Of a DNA stretch of 36,525 bases, positions 3,599 to 30,136 are shown one piece after another. The DNA is from an uncultured Bacilli bacterium. GTDB taxonomy: Bacteria > Bacillota_I > Bacilli_A > RF39 > UBA660. The notes below the pieces were generated by a model. That model was not told the DNA's origin and did not search any database. It saw only the letters and a program-made list of their open reading frames with translations. The stretch spans positions 1-36,525 of the forward strand of contig CALVJI010000001.1 of the NCBI GenBank assembly GCA_944332105.1. The letters are read 5' to 3'. A program made the translations under genes and the position numbers. Every line of letters begins with the position of its first letter. The stretch's first letter is position 1.

Positions 3599-4924
3599 AT
3601 GAAAGAAATAAAAAAATATTTACAATCGCGAATTACTGACAAAGATACTTGTGTTCTTGCTCTATCAGGTGGCCCAGATTCAATGTGTTTATTATCTTTA
3701 TTAGAAGAAATAAACGCACATATCATCTGTGTTCATATTAATCATAATACAAGAGCTGCTTGTATAGAAGAATATGCCTTCATAAAAAAATATGTAGAGC
3801 AAAAAAAGATTCCTCTTGTCTATCATAAAATTGAAGAATATACAAAAGGAAAATTTACAGAGGAAGAAGCACGAGAAATACGTTATCAAAAATTATTATC
3901 AGTCGCGAATGAATATCATGCAAAATACATTTTAACAGCTCATCATGCAGATGATTTAACAGAGACTATTATAATGCGCTTACTAAGAGGAAGCACCCTC
4001 GAAGGTTATGCTGGCTTTAAAAAAGAAACGACTTATCAAGGCCACATAATTTTAAGGCCGTTCATTTCCAAAAAAAAGCAGGAAATTTATGCATATTTAA
4101 AAGCAAATGAAATACCATATATAGAAGATGAAAGTAATAAAAGTGATGACTACGAAAGAAATCGTATTCGTCACCATATATTGCCGCTTTTAGAACGAGA
4201 AAACGATAAATATCCAACAAAGATTCTTCAATTTAGTAATACTCTTCTAAAAAAAGCAACATTACTTAAAGAAATCATGGATGATGAAAGGAAAAAGATT
4301 GAAGAAAATGGCAAAATAAATGTATCTTTATTTAAAAAACTATCTCCTTTAATGCAAGAGTCATACGTTGAATATTATTTACAAGATGTATATCAAGAGA
4401 ATCTAAAAAAAATTACCTTAAAACATCAAAGATTATTTCTTAAAAGTATTGAGAATAAAGAAACTAGGTTAATTTTAGATTTTCCAGGGGGTTATCAGTT
4501 AGTAAAAGAAAATGGATATATTTATTTAGCCAAAAAGAAAGAAAGCGTATCTTATTGTATAAAATGTGAGGATATGAACATCTTACCTAATGGGATACTA
4601 AAAAAAATAGAAAATTACGAGGAGAAAAGTAATTATGAAATTCATTTGAATTCTCAAGAAATCGCTTTACCTTTATATATTACTACCAGAAAAAATGGCA
4701 TGAAAATGGCTACCAAAAATTTAAATGGTCATCAAAAAATCAGTGATATCTTAACAAATAGTAAAATAAAAGGCTCAAAAAAAGATGAAATTCCTATTCT
4801 GGTTGACAGTAAAGGCGAGGTTTTATGGGTTTTAGGTATCAAGAAATCAAAATATGATTTAGAAAAAGATAAAAACTATGATATAATATACAAGTATATT
4901 GAAAGAAAGGAAAAAACAATATGA
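3599..4924 (+). CDS. tilS: tRNA(Ile)-lysidine synthetase
   Basis: SGGPDS PP-loop and the conserved position immediately upstream of ftsH. RBS AGGAGTG precedes the ATG at 3599. Confidence 0.88.
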   Translation: MKEIKKYLQSRITDKDTCVLALSGGPDSMCLLSLLEEINAHIICVHINHNTRAACIEEYAFIKKYVEQKKIPLVYHKIEEYTKGKFTEEEAREIRYQKLLSVANEYHAKYILTAHHADDLTETIIMRLLRGSTLEGYAGFKKETTYQGHIILRPFISKKKQEIYAYLKANEIPYIEDESNKSDDYERNRIRHHILPLLERENDKYPTKILQFSNTLLKKATLLKEIMDDERKKIEENGKINVSLFKKLSPLMQESYVEYYLQDVYQENLKKITLKHQRLFLKSIENKETRLILDFPGGYQLVKENGYIYLAKKKESVSYCIKCEDMNILPNGILKKIENYEEKSNYEIHLNSQEIALPLYITTRKNGMKMATKNLNGHQKISDILTNSKIKGSKKDEIPILVDSKGEVLWVLGIKKSKYDLEKDKNYDIIYKYIERKEKTI

Positions 4925-6915
4925 GAAAAACAAATCAAAATGCTATGCGCAATTTATTTCCTTATTTGATTTTAGTCATTGTAATATTTGTTGTTTTAAG
5001 CGTTCTAAATTTAGGACGGACGATTACAAACAACTTAACAACCGGCGAATTAATGAGTGAAATAGAAAATAAAAATGTGACAGAAATTACCATAACACCT
5101 AGTAGTGAAGAAAGTGTTTATTATATTGATGGTAAATTATCTACATATAAAGAAAATGAAACCTTTCGCGCTACTGTTGTGGAAGCAGAATTAGATAATA
5201 TTATTAAGTATGCTGAATCAGCTGATCTAAAGGTATATGAGACGAATCCAGATCCAGGTACAATCTCATGGGTATATATTTTAATAAATATTGTACCACT
5301 AATCATTTTAGTCGGCGCTACTTACTTCATTTTTGTTAAAATGGCAAACAGTAATAAAGGATCTATGGACTTTGGTAAAAGTCGTGCGAAACTATCAAGT
5401 GATGGTGGCAAAGTTCGTTTTAGTGATGTTGCAGGCTTAAAAGAAGAAAAAGAAGAAGTTTCAGAATTAATTGATTTCTTAAAAAATCCTAAAAAATTCC
5501 AACGTTTAGGCGCTCGTATTCCAAAAGGTGTCTTACTAGTAGGCCCTCCTGGAACAGGTAAAACTTTATTAGCAAAAGCTGTAGCTGGTGAAGCAAACGT
5601 ACCATTCTACTTTATCAGTGGTTCAGATTTCGTTGAATTATTCGTTGGTGTCGGTGCTAGCCGTGTTCGAGACATGTTTAAAGAAGCCAAACGAAATGCA
5701 CCATGTTTAATATTTATCGATGAAATTGATGCAGTTGGACGTCAAAGAGGTTCAGGCATTGGTGGAGGACATGATGAAAGAGAACAAACACTTAACCAAT
5801 TGTTAACAGAAATGGATGGCTTTGGTGCAAATGAAGGAATTATTATCATTGCCGCGACGAACCGCCCAGATGTTCTAGATCCAGCTTTACTACGACCAGG
5901 ACGTTTTGATCGTCAAGTAACAGTTAATCTTCCAGATACTGAAGAAAGAGAAGCAATTTTAAAAGTTCATTCTAAAAATAAAATTTTAGCTAACAATGTT
6001 AACCTAAAAAGTATTAGTCAAAGAACTTCAGGTTTCTCTGGAGCTGATTTGGAAAACTTAATGAATGAAGCAGCCCTTCTTGCTGTTCGTAAAAATGAGG
6101 CAGCTATTACTCTTCAAGATATTGATGAAGCGACCGATCGCGTATTAATGGGACCAGCTAAAACTTCTAGAAAAGTTAGCGATGATGTTAAATGGTTAAC
6201 TGCAGTTCATGAATCTGGTCACGCTGTATTAGGCTTAAAATTAAAAGATGCAATGGAAGTTCAAAAAATCACGATTGTACCAAGAGGTATGGCTGGTGGT
6301 TACACAGCTTATACACCTAAAGAAGATAACATTACAAGATATACAAGAAATGAGATGATCGCGATTATTACTTCTACTCTAGGTGGTCGTGCAGCTGAAG
6401 AATTATTCCTAGATGATATAACTACTGGAGCTAGTGATGACTTTAAACGTTCGACTGAACTAGCTAGAAGCATGGTAACTGAATATGGTATGAGTGATCT
6501 AGGACCAATTCGTTACGAAGCAAATTCTGGTGATAATGTATTCTTAGGTCGTGATTATAATAAAACGAAAAATTACTCTGATAAAGTTGCTTTAGAGATC
6601 GATCAAGAAGCGCGTAAAATTATTATGAATTGTTATGAAAATGCCAAGAAAATATTAAAAGAAAATAAAGATTTAGTTATGTTATTAAGTCATACATTAA
6701 TTGAAAGAGAAACTATTACCAAAGAACAAATTGATGAATTAGTTCGGACTGGTAAAATTGAAGATGAAACTTTTGACATTAGTGATGAACCAACAATCAG
6801 TAAACTAAGAGAAGAAGCTAAAGCCATGAAAATAAAAGGTGCATCAAAAATGACTAAAGAGGAATTGGAACAAGCTTTAGAGGAAGCAGAAAAACAAAAA
6901 AATAACGAAGAATAA
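4921..6915 (+). CDS. ftsH: ATP-dependent zinc metalloprotease FtsH
   Basis: Two N-terminal TM segments, Walker A GPPGTGKT, the AAA second region of homology, and the zinc site HESGHA. Confidence 0.97.
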
Positions 6916-18353: not shown

Positions 18354-20087
18354 GTGAAAAAAGAAGCATTAAAAAAAATCATGACAATGTATGGCTTTTA
18401 TTCTTTAAACAAAGAACCTTTTTTGTATGAAAAAGAAACAGAATTAGGAATAGCCTATACTTTCAAAGACGATTTTTTTGGTGAATTAACACGCATATAC
18501 GTTCCCAAAAATGAAGAAGAAGCAACAGACTTTTTAGCTAAATATAGTTGGTATAAAAAATATGGCCAAAAATATCAAATTAAAATTGTCTTATCCGATT
18601 ACAAATTATATAATCCAGAAATAAGCTTTATAAAAGATGAAAAAAAACTATCTTTAGAAGGTATGAAGCAATTAATTGAAGATCAAGATGGTAAAAAAGA
18701 AACAACTAAAAAAGATGAAGCATATATTGAAAAATTACAAAGAACTCTTCTTTTACTAGTAGAAATAATTAAAGAAAAAATCAAAATTCAAGAAGATACA
18801 TATAAAAATTTATTTGAATTAACCAAGGAATTTCGGGCCAAACATAATCAATTAGAAAAATTAAAAAAAGAATATGATAAAAGAGCTAAAATAACTTTAT
18901 TACCTGAAGAAGAATTCACACCGTTACCAGACCTCACTAAAGAATTGAAAACCTTAAGTCAAGATATTGAAAAAATAAAAGAAAAAGAAGTTTTAGAACA
19001 ACAAATAGATGCATTTATTGAATATTTAAAAACCTTAGAAAAAAGTGAGAGTTTAATAAAAAACAAATACGAACTTTTAAAAATACCATTAGAAGTAGAA
19101 AATATGAATAAAGAAATTCAAGTATATGAAAATTTTGCTAATAAAAAGAAAGGACTATTTGCCAAAAAAGTATCTATATCTGAAGAATTAGCTAAAATAG
19201 AAAAACAAAGTGTTGTCTTACATATTGTTTCTTTTGAACAATTTAAAGAAAATGAAATAAAAAGAATTGAAGAAAAATATGCAATGATTCCCGATTTAGA
19301 TAAACGAACCATTAGTGATTTTCTTATTGAATTTGATAATTTAAAAGTAAAAGAGCCTCCTAAGAAAAAAGAACAACCAAAAGAAACAGAACTTTCATAC
19401 GAGGAAGTAATGGTTAAATTAGAAAAAGACTTTTATGAAAGAGGTACAAACGAACAAAAAGTATTAACAGTTTTCCATTCTATTGTAAGACCGATTTTAT
19501 TAAATAAGATCTATCGTGAAAAACAGATAGAAGAATTTATTACTTTATTAAATAACCCCAATAATATTATGATTCGTTTAAAATATTTTAAAGATATAGA
19601 TACGAGTTCACCACGCAAGTGCTACGATTCATTATTACTATATCGAAAAAATTTAGAAACGATCCAGCCAGATATTTTAGAAGGAACAATTAATGTTTTC
19701 TTTAAAGCAAATAAAGTACTAGACAATATAGAATATTTAGCCGTGACCAATAAAAGAACACAAGCTCCATCTCAAAATCTTGGCGAGAATGAAATTGAAT
19801 ACATTGCTTCTATCAAAAAATCGACGAAAGTATATTTTATTCCAACAGAAATTACTTATGATTTGGCCAGTGATGATACACTTATTCAAAAAAAGAATCA
19901 ACCTTTTTTCTTAATTGATGTACAAAAAAATACTATAAATACAGAAAAATCTGATATAATAAAAATTGTAAGATATCAACTAGAAAAAAAACAAGTAGAA
20001 CAAGAAACCATTGCAGTAGATATTAAAAGTCAAAAAATAGATCAATATAAGAAAATTATAATAGAAGGGAATGAGAACTTTGAATAA
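18354..20087 (+). CDS. large hypothetical protein (577 aa) with a Lys/Glu-rich coiled-coil central region
   Basis: Uninterrupted 1.7-kb ORF with a GTG start. No family recognised. Confidence 0.7.
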   Translation: MKKEALKKIMTMYGFYSLNKEPFLYEKETELGIAYTFKDDFFGELTRIYVPKNEEEATDFLAKYSWYKKYGQKYQIKIVLSDYKLYNPEISFIKDEKKLSLEGMKQLIEDQDGKKETTKKDEAYIEKLQRTLLLLVEIIKEKIKIQEDTYKNLFELTKEFRAKHNQLEKLKKEYDKRAKITLLPEEEFTPLPDLTKELKTLSQDIEKIKEKEVLEQQIDAFIEYLKTLEKSESLIKNKYELLKIPLEVENMNKEIQVYENFANKKKGLFAKKVSISEELAKIEKQSVVLHIVSFEQFKENEIKRIEEKYAMIPDLDKRTISDFLIEFDNLKVKEPPKKKEQPKETELSYEEVMVKLEKDFYERGTNEQKVLTVFHSIVRPILLNKIYREKQIEEFITLLNNPNNIMIRLKYFKDIDTSSPRKCYDSLLLYRKNLETIQPDILEGTINVFFKANKVLDNIEYLAVTNKRTQAPSQNLGENEIEYIASIKKSTKVYFIPTEITYDLASDDTLIQKKNQPFFLIDVQKNTINTEKSDIIKIVRYQLEKKQVEQETIAVDIKSQKIDQYKKIIIEGNENFE

Positions 20088-20670
20088 AGAAATGTTTGTC
20101 AAAAAATTAAAAGATAAATTAGATATTTTAGAAGATAGTGTTCAAGAAGAAGAGATTAATGAATATGTAAAAAAAATAGAGGAACAAGAAAAAAACGATT
20201 TAAAAGAAGAGGACATTATTAAATCATTTGGCTCTATTAATGAGATAAGTCGCAAAATTTTAAAAAAACATGGAATTAATCCGAATAAAGTTTTAAAGAA
20301 AGACCGTTTCTTATACAAGAAGTTTGAAGAACTATTTGAAGTGATTCACAAAGTAGTCGATGTGATGTCTAAAAATTCTTTAGAGGAAAATGCCAAAATT
20401 ATTTTAGATATTCTTATTCTAATCGCCTTTGTTTGTCTATTAAAGATTCCTTTCGTCGCGATTAGAGACTTAGGAGACAGTTTGCTTAGTTATACAAGTA
20501 TCCCAGTTTTATATAATTTATGGGGGATATTAATTGATATAATCTATATCATTGTCGCTGTATTTGTCTTTATGAATATCTTCACAAAATGGTTTAAAAA
20601 TTTAAAAAGCACTAAAAAATTAAAAGTAAAAAGTCTAGATACTGTTACTTTAGAAGACAAAAAAGAGTAG
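20080..20670 (+). CDS. DUF1700-like membrane protein
   Basis: The N-terminus MNKEMFVKKLKDKLDILEDSVQEEEINEY...EEDIIKSFGSINEISRKIL resembles DUF1700, followed by two C-terminal TM segments. The TTG start at 20080 is preferred because GAAGGGA lies 9 nt upstream; the track start at 20071 abuts that RBS. Confidence 0.55.
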   Translation: MNKEMFVKKLKDKLDILEDSVQEEEINEYVKKIEEQEKNDLKEEDIIKSFGSINEISRKILKKHGINPNKVLKKDRFLYKKFEELFEVIHKVVDVMSKNSLEENAKIILDILILIAFVCLLKIPFVAIRDLGDSLLSYTSIPVLYNLWGILIDIIYIIVAVFVFMNIFTKWFKNLKSTKKLKVKSLDTVTLEDKKE

Positions 20671-26447: not shown

Positions 26448-27122
26448 ATGTTAGCTTATGGTAAAAACATCTTATTTATGACAGATCCAAAAGAGATTAA
26501 AAAGGTTTATCTATCACGCAAAGACGAGGAAATTTTTAATTATTTAAAAACTCATAAAATTCATTATGTTATGACGACAACAGAACAACTAAACAAAATG
26601 ACGAAAGCCAACCATCAAGGTATAATTATTGAAAGAGATGAATATAAATATTATACGCTTGAAGATATAAATAATGAGGAGTTTTTATTAATATTAGATC
26701 ACTTAGAAGATCCGCATAATTTGGGGGCGATCATCAGAACTGCAGAAGCTGCTGGTATTAAAAGCATCATCATTCCTAAAGATCGCAGTGTAAGCATCAC
26801 CGACACAGTCATCAAAACGAGTGTAGGAACGACAAGCAAAGTGAAAGTAATTAAAGTAACAAATATTGTAGAAACCATAAAAAAATTACAGAAAAATGAT
26901 TATTTTGTCTATGCTTCAGCCATGGATGGCAAAGATGCTAGAAATATAGACTTTTCTGGAAAAAAAGTTTTAATAATCGGTAACGAAGGAAAAGGCATTA
27001 GTTCTTTAGTTCGTAATACTTGTGATGAAATCATTAAAATTCCAATGATTGGCGAAGTAAATAGTTTAAATGCCTCTGTCGCAGCCGGTATCCTAATTTT
27101 TAAAATGGGGGGATTAATTTGA
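26448..27122 (+). CDS. rlmB: TrmH-family 23S rRNA (guanosine-2'-O)-methyltransferase RlmB/YacO-like
   Basis: SpoU motifs (LDHLEDPHNLGAIIRTAEAAG, IGNEGKGIS, SLNASVAAGI) and the conserved position upstream of sigH. GGAGGGG precedes the ATG at 26448. Confidence 0.85.
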   Translation: MLAYGKNILFMTDPKEIKKVYLSRKDEEIFNYLKTHKIHYVMTTTEQLNKMTKANHQGIIIERDEYKYYTLEDINNEEFLLILDHLEDPHNLGAIIRTAEAAGIKSIIIPKDRSVSITDTVIKTSVGTTSKVKVIKVTNIVETIKKLQKNDYFVYASAMDGKDARNIDFSGKKVLIIGNEGKGISSLVRNTCDEIIKIPMIGEVNSLNASVAAGILIFKMGGLI

Positions 27123-27757
27123 ATTACCATGAAGACGATGAATTTTTATTTGACATGATCTCAGAAAGCAATGAAGAAGTACGAGATAGTTTATATGAAA
27201 GGTATATTCCATTAATAAAATACTTAACTAAAAAATATGTTCGCAGTGCTCAAAAATATGGACTAGATTACAACGACCTAATCCAAGAAGCCAATGTAGG
27301 TTTTGCCGATGCTTTAAATAGCTATGATGAGCAGAAGGACGCGAGTTTAAAAACATTTATCACCCTTTGCATTGAAAGACGCCTCATTAATGCCATTCGT
27401 AAAGCTCAATCAAATAAAAGCCAACAAGATAAAAGTAATCTTTCTTTAGAATATGATTATGATAACAATGGTCAACCATTAATTGAAGTGCTTCGTGACG
27501 ACACGATGGATCCATTGCTTCACTTTAGCGAACAAGAAAGTGAAGAAGCTTTGTACAAAAAAATTGAAAATGAACTATCGGAAGGAGAATATACAGTTTT
27601 CACTTATTTGTTAAATGGCCTAAATTATAAAGAAATTGCACTTTTACTTGACAAAACAGAAAAACAAATTGATAATACAATTCAAAGAATTCGTAATAAA
27701 ATTCGCAATCTTTTAAAGGAGGAAGAAAAATGGCCAGAAGAGAATGGAAAAAAATAG
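27119..27757 (+). CDS. sigH: RNA polymerase sigma factor, SigH-like
   Basis: Region 2 and region 4 patterns resemble B. subtilis SigH (DLIQEANVGFADALNSYDEQKDASLKTFITLCIERRLINAIR; YKEIALLLDKTEKQIDNTIQRIRNK), and the rlmB-sigH-secE-nusG synteny is conserved. TTG start preceded by GGGGGGA. Confidence 0.8.
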   Translation: MNYHEDDEFLFDMISESNEEVRDSLYERYIPLIKYLTKKYVRSAQKYGLDYNDLIQEANVGFADALNSYDEQKDASLKTFITLCIERRLINAIRKAQSNKSQQDKSNLSLEYDYDNNGQPLIEVLRDDTMDPLLHFSEQESEEALYKKIENELSEGEYTVFTYLLNGLNYKEIALLLDKTEKQIDNTIQRIRNKIRNLLKEEEKWPEENGKK

Positions 27758-28416
27758 GCATAGGTGCAATACTATGTATCCTTTTAATTTTAATTATGTT
27801 AAGCACTTTAACTTTTGAGATGACTAAAGAAGACACTTTTGAAGATTTAACCAATAAACCAAACGAACTAGATAGTTTAGTTTTTAAAAATGAAAGTGAT
27901 CTATCAGAAGAGGAAGTAAGCGAGATAGTAGAAGAAAAAAGAAATACTTTAAAAGATTTTTTTGAAAGTGCCACTTACTATAAACCAAGCGAAATAAACA
28001 GAGAATATACAAGTGCAGATGATGAAAACTATTTAGTGGTAGATGAAAGTTTCTTAAATGAATTAAATGCTCTTGTTACTACTGAGATTTATAATAGTTA
28101 TTTTGAACAATTTGTAGAAATTACGAAAGACCAAGATGTCGCGATTACAGAAAGACTCTACCGCGGTCCTAAAGACATTTTTGATGATTTATTTTATAAA
28201 AGTGCTATTGCCATGATCGACGTGAATGAAGAAAAAACACTGTTAGATCGCGCTACAAACGAGTACATAAGTGCAGTTATTAACATTAGATATTGTGATG
28301 AAGAACAACCAGATATTTGTTCCAAAAATGAATATTATGTTTTTGAACTACAAAAAGAAGAAAATGATTGGCAAGTTGCCGAATTTACTGAAGAGAAAAA
28401 ATTGAACAAAGCTTAA
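27730..28416 (+). CDS. hypothetical single-pass membrane protein overlapping the sigH 3' end
   Basis: Strong RBS AAGGAGG inside sigH, 7 nt before the ATG. An N-terminal TM segment (IGIGAILCILLILIMLSTL) is followed by an acidic extracytoplasmic domain. Confidence 0.7.
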   Translation: MARREWKKIGIGAILCILLILIMLSTLTFEMTKEDTFEDLTNKPNELDSLVFKNESDLSEEEVSEIVEEKRNTLKDFFESATYYKPSEINREYTSADDENYLVVDESFLNELNALVTTEIYNSYFEQFVEITKDQDVAITERLYRGPKDIFDDLFYKSAIAMIDVNEEKTLLDRATNEYISAVINIRYCDEEQPDICSKNEYYVFELQKEENDWQVAEFTEEKKLNKA

Positions 28417-28457: not shown

Positions 28458-28482
28458 TTTTTTAGTAGAAAAGAGGATATGA

Positions 28483-30136
28483 ATGAAAAAAGCGTTAAAA
28501 ATAAGTATCCTCCTAACCAGTCTAATCATTCTGGGGGGGGGGTATACTGAATAAGGAAAATTCTTTCCAGAATGACAAAGAAACTTTAGCAATTTATGTA
28601 GGTGAGAGTAAAACAGATGGGATTCCTTCAAAAGAAAACTATATTTTTGAAAACGCTGTTTGCACAGTCAATGGTAAAACAGATGAGACAGTGAAAGTCC
28701 TATGGGATGAAGAAGCATGGGCACCTATCCTGTATAATTTAAAAGATCATTCAACAAAATGTACTTTATATTTTAAAGAAAGATATCAAGAAGAAATATT
28801 AAATGGAGCAGATCCGGTATTACAAAATGATTTAATACCAGTTACAATCGATAATGATGGAACCGTAAAAAAAGCAGACTTAGGAAGCAAATGGTATAGT
28901 TATACAGATAAAGAATGGGCAAATGCTGTTCTCTTGTTTGATAATACGGTTTATTATGAACCAGGAGAAACGATTTCAGAAGAAGCAATTGAATCGTACT
29001 TTGTCTGGATTCCAAAATACAGATATCAATTATGGGATTTAGGAGACTATGATGGATTAACAGCTATTGATACAACTAAAGTTCACGAAATTCCTATAAT
29101 TTTTGGAGATTATAATACGAGTGATTCTGTCAATGGTGAATGCACCACGCCAATGGAGTCTGGCTCATCTGGTAATTGTGAAATTGGTGATTATATGACG
29201 CATCCTGCATTCTTAAGTATTCCAAGTACAGGCTTTTGGGTTGGCAAATTTGAGACCGGATATAACGGTGCAACTAGTAGTAGTGAAGCTTTGAAAAATG
29301 AGAATGACGCGAGCAAAGTAATTATAAAACCGAATACGTATAGTTGGCGAGGAAGCCAAGTGGCTAATGCTTTTTACACCTCTTATAATTATAAACGAGA
29401 GTTAGATAGTCATATGATGAAAAACACAGAATGGGGAGCAGTTGCGTATTTACAACATAGCGCATATGGTTCAAGTACAAATATTAGACTAAACAATAAT
29501 TCTTCATATTTAACAGGCTATCAAGCCAATAATGAACCAACATGTGGCATAACTGGTACGAACATAGAATGTAACAAGCATTGCAACGATGAAAGTTGCA
29601 ATACACCTTATCCTAATAGTAATTTAGCAAGTACAACGGGAAATATTACAGGCATTTTTGATATGAGTGGTGGAGCTTGGGAATACATTATGGCAGCTAT
29701 TGTAAACCAAAGTGGTGAGCTAGTCAGTGGTCGTAATAGTTTGTATAACTCAGGATTTAATGGCCCATTCGGATGTCCAACTTGTGATAATAATAATTCA
29801 GGTATTACTGAGTTAACCACAGGAGTTACTTGGCCAGATAAGAAATATTATGATGTATACCAATATGGTAATAGTCCGTACGATGGCATTAGAAGAATAC
29901 TAGGCGATGCTACTAGTGAAATGGGACCATTTAATCGTACTCAATATGTTGAAGAATATATGCCTGTGATTAGTAGCTGGTATGAAGACTCGTTTTACAT
30001 GATCATAGTAAGTGAACCGTGGACAATTCGAGGAGGCAATTTTTCTTATGGGGCAAACTCTGGAATATTTTCATTTGAAAACCATTATGGAGCCGTAGCC
30101 AATTATTCATTTCGTCTTGTGCTGACTCCTGTTTAA
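28483..30136 (+). CDS. secreted FGE-sulfatase (SUMF1)-like domain protein, split by a G10 tract (frame OFF as sequenced; G9 gives an intact 550-aa protein)
   Basis: AGAGGA lies 5 nt upstream of the ATG at 28483, which encodes the signal peptide MKKALKISILLTSLIILGGG. After the G tract this frame stops at 28552. The +1 frame is open from 28526 to 30136 and carries FGE-like motifs (THPAFL..GFWVGKFE, FDMSGGAWEYIMA, WTIRGGNFSY). Confidence 0.75.
28533..28542 (+). repeat. G10 homopolymeric tract (candidate slipped-strand phase-variation switch)
   Basis: Ten consecutive G residues at the junction of the signal peptide and the mature protein. It is the only G/C run longer than 6 that I saw in the window. 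Confidence 0.9.

Follow-up and report, generated by a model that had tools for sequence, protein, structure and literature searches.

Homopolymeric contingency loci are textbook knowledge in Campylobacter, Neisseria, Haemophilus, Helicobacter and the mycoplasmas. Here, we describe a stretch of 36,525 nucleotides (nt) from an uncultured Bacilli bacterium (assembly GCA_944332105.1, contig CALVJI010000001.1, positions 1 to 36,525; hereafter "the window"), in which a run of ten G's separates the N-terminal signal-anchor segment of a gene from its 530-codon body. Judged from the sequence and from comparison with related strains and paralogues, the run is very likely a slipped-strand translational ON/OFF switch, which the window captures in the OFF state, and the gene probably encodes a phase-variable surface binding protein. 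The mechanism as such, a homopolymer contingency switch, is already known; the novelty lies in the lineage and in the family of proteins concerned. No description of phase variation by simple sequence repeats (SSRs) in these uncultured Bacilli, nor of its combination with targets of diversity-generating retroelements (DGRs), emerged from literature searches. This is consistent with a preliminary description of the locus, made from the sequence alone, which had taken such switches to be undescribed in the lineage, a claim that is not provable.

Among the mycoplasmas, the Vlp proteins of M. hyorhinis are controlled by a poly-A tract in the promoter, and other lipoprotein families are likewise switched by SSRs. 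The Bacilli locus and its relatives resemble these variable families in the reduced genome, in a multi-copy set of surface proteins whose 5' or signal module is conserved, and in an independent homopolymer switch for each copy, which would allow combinatorial surface variation. In contrast to the mycoplasma proteins, those considered here are not lipoproteins (there is no lipobox cysteine) and are predicted to form a large globular C-type-lectin fold instead of repeat-rich antigens; compared with Vlp, the tract consists of G rather than A and, in the window, lies within the coding sequence.

The poly-G "phasome" of Campylobacter jejuni, as outlined in two reports (PMC6321876, PMC8355987), shares several features with the present system: tracts of G9-G11 size in an AT-rich genome, a 5'-intragenic or intergenic position, ON/OFF control of surface structures, many loci per genome and a bimodal spectrum of run lengths. 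Yet, the host here is a monoderm, uncultured bacterium of the Bacilli with a small genome, and the tracts are concentrated in one paralogous family, whereas in C. jejuni they are spread over glycosylation, capsule and restriction genes. Neisseria and Haemophilus have translational and promoter SSR switches, with poly-G tracts within the open reading frames (ORFs) of hmbR and hpuA, and tracts in the promoter spacers of porA and opc. The in-ORF poly-G tracts, which cause ON/OFF switching by frameshift (PMC3786947), are the counterpart of the arrangement found in the window.

The poly-G tract and its lengths in related strains

The tract lies between 20 codons starting at ATG 28483 and a body of 530 codons in the +1 frame. 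The elements of this region are, in order:

28472..28477, + strand: Shine-Dalgarno-like AGAGGA, 5 nt before ATG 28483 and 1 nt before an overlapping ATG at 28479 (direct reading)
28483..28532, + strand: start codon and putative N-terminal signal-anchor segment MKKALKISILLTSLIIL, up to the tract (translation)
28533..28542, + strand: poly-G tract G10, the proposed slipped-strand switch (direct reading, orthologue lengths, chance expectation)
28544..30136, + strand: gene body in the +1 frame, from ILNKENS... to ...RLVLTPV (stop at 30134-30136; free of internal stops in every strain)
28552..28554, + strand: TAA that closes the signal-peptide frame after 23 codons at G10 (translation)

Read from ATG 28483 with ten G's at 28533-28542, the frame gives MKKALKISILLTSLIILGGGYTE and ends at TAA 28552-28554, while the open +1 frame extends from 28526 as far as the stop at 30134-30136. 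Tract lengths of 6, 9 or 12 join the signal segment to the body, and G10 and G11 leave them out of frame. In the G11 state an overlapping TGA stops the signal frame after 22 codons, and both OFF frames terminate 2-3 codons past the tract. Removal of one G in silico yields a protein of 550 amino acids (aa), and addition of two G's one of 551 aa; the preliminary description had given the same tract positions, AGAGGA spacing and frame arithmetic, all of which hold on direct re-reading. It had also reported no other G or C run longer than six, and a run count agrees: elsewhere in the 36,525 nt only one run of at least six occurs, a G6 at 27107-27112. The tract is thus the sole G/C run above six in 36.5 kb and far exceeds the length that composition predicts. 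At a G+C content of 31% (base frequencies G 0.169, C 0.136), the chance expectation for G/C runs of at least ten in the window is 6.5e-4.

The start region is well conserved. AGAGGA is unchanged in all conspecific contigs, the in-frame orthologues P0001 and P0282 start with the same N-terminal peptide as the window gene, about 27 nt on the 5' side of the tract are conserved among paralogues, and residues 3-17 of the signal anchor are helical in the full-length structure model. At G11 the second ATG, at 28479, shares the frame of the body, and in G11 contigs gene callers accordingly report a 552-aa product, MNEKSVKNKYPPNQSNHSGGGG..., which lacks a signal peptide. Because its Shine-Dalgarno spacing is only 1 nt, this start is regarded as a probable gene-calling artefact.

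Related strains were sought by exact look-up of the 228-aa protein encoded upstream of the gene or of NusG, which retrieved about twenty conspecific contigs from other samples; exact look-up of the window SecE retrieved none. A search with the repaired protein led to the full-length 549-aa protein P0001, whose body is 96% identical and whose contig (L001) matches the window at about 98% near the gene start and carries an in-frame G6. The comparison of orthologues that the preliminary description had proposed finds the tract at the following lengths:

G6: ERZ17292902; ON, 549 aa
G10: the window and seven samples (ERZ28615081, ERZ15844613, ERZ2916501, ERR4968687, ERZ2641666, ERZ24773437, ERZ24773444); OFF
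G11: ERZ24774876 and SRR14535162; OFF
G12: ERZ28614819; ON, 551 aa

The predicted in-frame lengths 6 and 12 are thus both actually found in other assemblies. Contigs L085 (G11) and L087 (G12) show no difference from the window across the 1590-nt body, and their flanks match at 687 of 687 positions upstream and 769 of 770 downstream, which leaves the tract as the sole change in the gene and its upstream flank. The body is without internal stop in all eight strains, and Nei-Gojobori ratios of nonsynonymous to synonymous change (dN/dS) against the window range from 0.09 to 0.15, comparisons of two G10 (OFF) strains included. By these ratios, the body is under purifying selection and not a decaying pseudogene.

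A divergent allele occupies the same syntenic slot in four contigs (L092, L095, L096, L098), where the secE-nusG flank is 98.1% identical and the gene only about 78%. This disparity points to allelic replacement or recombination of a putative surface-protein gene. The tract of the divergent allele reads G10 in L092 and L096 and G6 plus T in L095 and L098, and all four are in frame because the stretch from the tract to GAATAA is 1 nt shorter. An in-frame G10 in this allele means that "G10" is not an assembler habit. We conclude that the tract has probably been kept by selection in both alleles.

OFF copies are systematically mis-annotated as N-terminally truncated: in the 90%-identity cluster of P0270, eight of the 15 members listed are 481-aa truncated calls that start at GTG 28691.

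The protein family, its tracts and its retroelements

The repaired protein matches no Pfam family at E<=1, including PF03781, the family against which the preliminary description had proposed to check it; its 481-aa body has no Pfam match at E<=0.01. A search of NCBIfam gave a single 12.8-bit match judged meaningless, PHROGs gave nothing for the repaired protein, and PDB gave nothing by phmmer or with a profile of close homologues. The profile of 84 diverse representatives made weak contact with PvdO and with 5vf4, and weak PF03781 matches were present in 17 of the 84 relatives (best 4.9e-4). A usable AlphaFold (AF2) model was built on these 84 representatives, clustered at 50% identity, and reached a predicted local distance difference test (pLDDT) of 95.5 and a predicted template modelling score (pTM) of 0.93; a first model from 41 close homologues was discarded (pLDDT 40). 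The protein is predicted to consist of the following parts:

28586..28783, + strand: N-terminal beta-rich domain, about residues 35-100 (beta strands with pLDDT of about 70-80 in the first model; variable among paralogues by conservation profile)
28781..30133, + strand: FGE-type C-type-lectin-fold ectodomain, about residues 100-550 (AF2 model and Foldseek)
29936..30118, + strand: C-terminal hypervariable segment, residues 485-545 (conservation profile)

The best structural match by Foldseek is TaqVP, the DGR variable protein of Thermus aquaticus (5vf4; E 8e-9, probability 1.0), followed by FGE, the Treponema denticola protein TvpA, OvoA and EgtB. Matches to FGE (6muj, 2q17), EgtB and OvoA are weak, with E values of about 0.1-0.5 and a probability of 0.2-0.3 for FGE. 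The nearest viral models are a SUMF-like protein (the top BFVD match, E 2e-9) and phage tail fibres; for phage tail-fibre or SUMF-like proteins the Foldseek probability also reaches 1.0.

The name "FGE-sulfatase-like" of the preliminary description therefore survives at the level of the fold class, which model and Foldseek support and in which motifs such as DMSGGAWEY and RGG...FRLV are recognisable. It does not extend to the enzyme: the window protein differs from FGE/SUMF1 in having no PF03781 match, a low Foldseek probability and no C-terminal cysteine pair. The catalytic copper-binding pair of FGE we take to lie near the C-terminus, and since the last 60 residues of the window protein contain no cysteine, that pair is missing. 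The cysteine-rich insert of the lectin-fold domain, at 29542-29785 (residues 354-434), carries six conserved cysteines (C354, C363, C367, C372, C431 and C434), identified from conserved alignment columns, the last two forming a CPTC motif. An enzyme of the FGE type is unlikely, and we conclude that the protein would be an exported binding protein on an FGE-type lectin scaffold. Export is suggested by the hydrophobic N-terminal helix and by prepilin-type N_methyl signals at the start of 21 of the 84 diverse relatives, with which an extracytoplasmic location fits for the family; the window protein itself has no N_methyl (PF07963) match and no G-F-T-L-x-E leader/cleavage motif (MKKALKISILLTSLIILGGG).

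Variation among paralogues is greatest in the C-terminal 50-60 residues, with a majority-residue fraction of 0.42-0.60 in residues 485-545 compared with 0.8-0.93 in the core. In DGR-targeted relatives the variable region occupies this same end. The C-type-lectin fold is shared with the DGR variable proteins TaqVP (5vf4), the best structural match, and TvpA (2y3c). According to PMC6328139, on TaqVP, the fold is a conserved scaffold of DGR variable proteins that accommodates massive variation and is known for ligand binding.

The family is very large and unnamed. A word-indexed search returned more than 5300 proteins, a profile search 4559 representatives (50%-identity clusters, E<=1e-3) and a search of GTDB species representatives 591 confirmed stretches; in the sources searched no member bears a name. 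Members are concentrated in uncultured gut metagenome-assembled genomes (MAGs) that bear the labels Bacilli, "Tenericutes", Erysipelotrichaceae or Candidatus Ventrenecus. One MAG can harbour 8-12 separate loci, frequently with tandem copies; a complete 1.31-Mb genome has at least three copies and the window one.

Tracts were surveyed in GTDB genomes, over the 468 kb that surround 80 homologous loci. The spectrum of G runs is bimodal (374 G4, 62 G5, 8 G6, 2 G7, 1 G8, 6 G9, 6 G10, 7 G11, 2 G12 and 1 G13), and C runs reach C6 at most, with none of seven or more. Nearly all tracts of at least seven (23 of 25) are located where a family gene begins, at its 5' end, and it is invariably the coding strand that carries the G's; about a quarter of the copies with sufficient upstream sequence (17 of 65) possess such a tract. 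These 5' tracts of G7-G13 occur in both ON and OFF registers. At exactly the position seen in the window (...ILLTSLIVL-G(n)-tatat...), L002, L004 and L009 are ON, all with G9, and L012 (G7), L016, L044 and L045 (G10) and L020 and L078 (G11) are OFF. In a subclass with the tract directly after the start codon, L013 is ON and L026 is OFF, both with G9. The single metagenome ERZ1643251 contains five paralogues (L102-L106), the whole yield of the one DNA scan of metagenomes, which share the 5' module MKKRITFLILLTSLVVLGG (MKIRIGLLILLTSLVVLGG in L106) and carry G6 (L102, ON), G8 (OFF) and three times G10 (OFF). A contingency family would be expected to look like this, with the majority of its copies OFF and a few ON.

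Two further placements were observed. In ten copies a G9-G13 tract lies 50-145 nt upstream of the start codon (in L008, 350 nt from the first long ORF):

L003, 160-168
L005, 2904-2913
L006, 2888-2897
L008, 2759-2770
L015, 2855-2867
L036 and L040, 26-36
L043, 2846-2855
L049, 2846-2856
L050, 2881-2891

These tracts begin 1 nt past a conserved TTGAC(A/G), and 8-9 nt separate them from a downstream TGATAAAAT-like extended -10 element, likewise conserved, which at the same time forms the 5' arm of a hairpin (13 bp, GAAA loop, T-run). Like the promoter tracts of Neisseria/Haemophilus, they lie between -35-like and -10-like elements. They were considered as promoter-spacer switches ("class B") with a spacing of n+9; the recounted hexamer spacing is 19-22 bp in 10 of 10, and, in contrast to the neisserial promoter switches, a spacer mechanism is not established here. 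A promoter scan does not call L003. The fourth placement in the family is within a long prepilin leader, MGFRNTNKYSS-G(n)-HFTK..FTL, as in L075 (G7, 2746-2752) and L081 (G12, 2743-2754) of the MAG BRZ_FK__bin67. The downstream frame of L081 stops after 49 codons, and the L075 and L081 copies may carry further lesions.

The family is also linked to DGRs directly. Locus L070 (2539-6841) harbours a complete DGR acting on a family member of 668 aa with a prepilin N_methyl N-terminus. Its variable region (VR, 4380-4545) is matched by a template repeat (TR, 4738-4903), with all mismatches of the matching stretch at TR adenines, and an ORF with a MutS_I domain, bAvd and a reverse transcriptase (RT) lie downstream of the TR. 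The VR corresponds to the same C-terminal stretch as the hypervariable segment of the window protein. Similar repeats and RT motifs are present in L041 and L034. In L034, a G8 tract (4852-4859) splits a MutS_I-like DGR accessory ORF (4762-5162). With G6 or G9 this ORF would be whole again, so that the DGR might itself be subject to phase variation; the RT ORF downstream also appears truncated.

The window gene was considered as a local DGR target and rejected. Unlike the DGR variable proteins, it has no TR copy of its 3' end, as a second copy of the last 337 nt is lacking in the window; no RT or Avd was found among the annotated window genes, which are housekeeping genes, a scan outside which about a dozen ORFs of at least 100 aa remain; and conspecific strains show little or no difference in the VR-equivalent segment. 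Because of these three observations we conclude that the window copy is most plausibly switched (its variation being ON/OFF) and not hypermutated by a DGR, a remote TR elsewhere in the genome being possible.

Weighing the alternatives

Three other explanations would leave the tract without a role as a DNA-level switch. The first is recoding: RNA polymerase slippage or a ribosomal +1 shift on GGG GGG could make G10 productive, so that the tract would tune the level of expression. A tRNA-Gly is able to re-pair perfectly after slipping in a G run, transcriptional slippage is established for long A/T homopolymers, and G10 predominates even though the body is under selection. Yet, no stimulatory element is evident, since the A site presents neither a rare nor a stop codon, UAU follows as the next codon and nothing structured was noticed downstream; slippage is generally weaker on G/C than on A/T runs; and the DNA length varies between strains in and out of frame, which recoding does not need. 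Recoding in place of switching is thus improbable. It can coexist with DNA-level switching as a leak, and such a leak would help to explain the dominance of G10.

The second alternative holds that the tract length is a sequencing or assembly error at a homopolymer, that the true gene is in frame (G9 or G12) and that nothing is switched. Several observations speak for it, or at any rate against a switch as the explanation. Illumina indel errors increase at long G runs, and the contigs L085 and L089 have coverages of only about 3.5x and 3x, so that some length differences rest on low-coverage contigs and single G11 and G12 calls could be errors. Contigs break or turn chimeric at the tract: L086 ends 2 nt and L088 10 nt after it, and L101 begins with unrelated sequence 45 nt before it. 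Such breaks also fit a length-heterogeneous site in a de Bruijn graph, for which they are only suggestive. Length variation is known between the consensus contigs of assemblies, not within one population; the ERZ, ERR and SRR accessions are possibly not all independent samples; and most assemblies have G10 (OFF) as consensus. Moreover, the signal peptide was assigned by eye and from the model helix, without SignalP, and a simple promoter/terminator scan recognised no element upstream of the gene on the + strand.

An error as the whole explanation is nevertheless very improbable. G10 recurs in seven further assemblies, for which different assemblers had been used and among which ERZ2916501 and ERZ15844613 reach coverages of 21x and 28x, and the gap between G6 and G10 is too big for read error; neither this difference nor G10 at 21-28x coverage can be an error. 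The same pipelines also give in-frame tracts of G9 (L002, L004, L009), G6 (L001, L102) and G10 (L092, L096), and hence there is no systematic +1 bias.

The third alternative, a fixed frameshift pseudogene that owes its inactivation to a single event at a mutable tract and is now decaying, could draw on OFF being the commonest state of the window's allele and on gene callers giving only the truncated 481-aa ORF, and is hardly tenable in view of the 1.59 kb without additional stops or frameshifts in eight strains, the low dN/dS even between OFF copies, the in-frame G6 and G12 variants within the same species, and the conservation of a tract that is ON as well in paralogues and the second allele.

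An ON/OFF switch that is currently OFF, as the preliminary description had proposed, is accordingly the reading that strain length variation, purifying selection and recurrent tracts in both registers among the paralogues support.

Genomic setting, proposed mechanism and meaning

The gene and an unannotated 228-aa membrane protein (27730-28416) lie, within the window segment 27119-30995, between a sigma-factor gene at the sigH position and secE-nusG, a block of housekeeping genes that is normally conserved. The 228-aa ORF has no Pfam match and shares 28 nt with the 3' end of the sigma gene; given this overlap, the protein might be an anti-sigma factor. In L096, a 747-aa paralogue containing Laminin_G_3 replaces the 228-aa gene. 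Elsewhere in the window (18354-20670), adjacent ORFs of 577 and 199 aa lack a Pfam family at E<=0.001, the former having two sub-threshold matches only at E<=0.1; this region is the most AT-rich of the window (about 25% G+C).

According to the proposed mechanism, the gene product would be a membrane-anchored or secreted protein composed of a signal anchor, a small beta domain and a large lectin-fold ectodomain, the C-terminal face of which would be the variable and presumably ligand-binding part. The coding-strand poly-G directly after the signal-anchor codons would gate expression, as slipped-strand mispairing during replication adds or removes G's. At lengths divisible by three (6, 9, 12) the signal peptide would be joined to the ectodomain, and the protein made and exported (ON); at G10 or G11 translation would end 22-23 codons from the start and no exported protein would result (OFF). 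With independent tracts in a multi-copy family, a clonal population would display different subsets of the proteins. We infer that tract lengths change often and reversibly in a population, that the protein lies exposed on the surface and that it binds a ligand.

A broader reading, which we advance tentatively and rate as slightly short of an even chance, is that this clade of small-genome gut Bacilli possesses a mycoplasma-like variable surface system built from DGR-type C-type-lectin binding proteins, in which ON/OFF switching and hypermutation are layered. At least ten paralogue loci in a single MAG would contribute, and about a quarter of the copies would each be controlled by a coding-strand poly-G switch that lies in the signal peptide, in a prepilin leader, directly behind the start codon or ahead of the gene. 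Sister genomes would hypermutate the same family by DGRs, and poly-G would interrupt one MutS_I-like accessory gene.

Bacilli of this kind, uncultured and with reduced genomes, are frequent inhabitants of human and animal guts. Provided that the switch is real, these commensals would vary their surface stochastically via a large unannotated family, estimated to take up at least 2% of a 1.3-Mb genome. OFF copies would be systematically mis-annotated as N-terminally truncated cytoplasmic proteins, and metagenome assemblies would break at the poly-G tracts. The link to DGR proteins provides a functional hypothesis, namely variable ligand or receptor binding, and the family offers a natural system for comparing ON/OFF switching and hypermutation on one scaffold. 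Should the layered reading also be true, phase variation and targeted hypermutation would act as two layers on a single family of adhesins or receptor-binding proteins, in commensals yet to be cultured.

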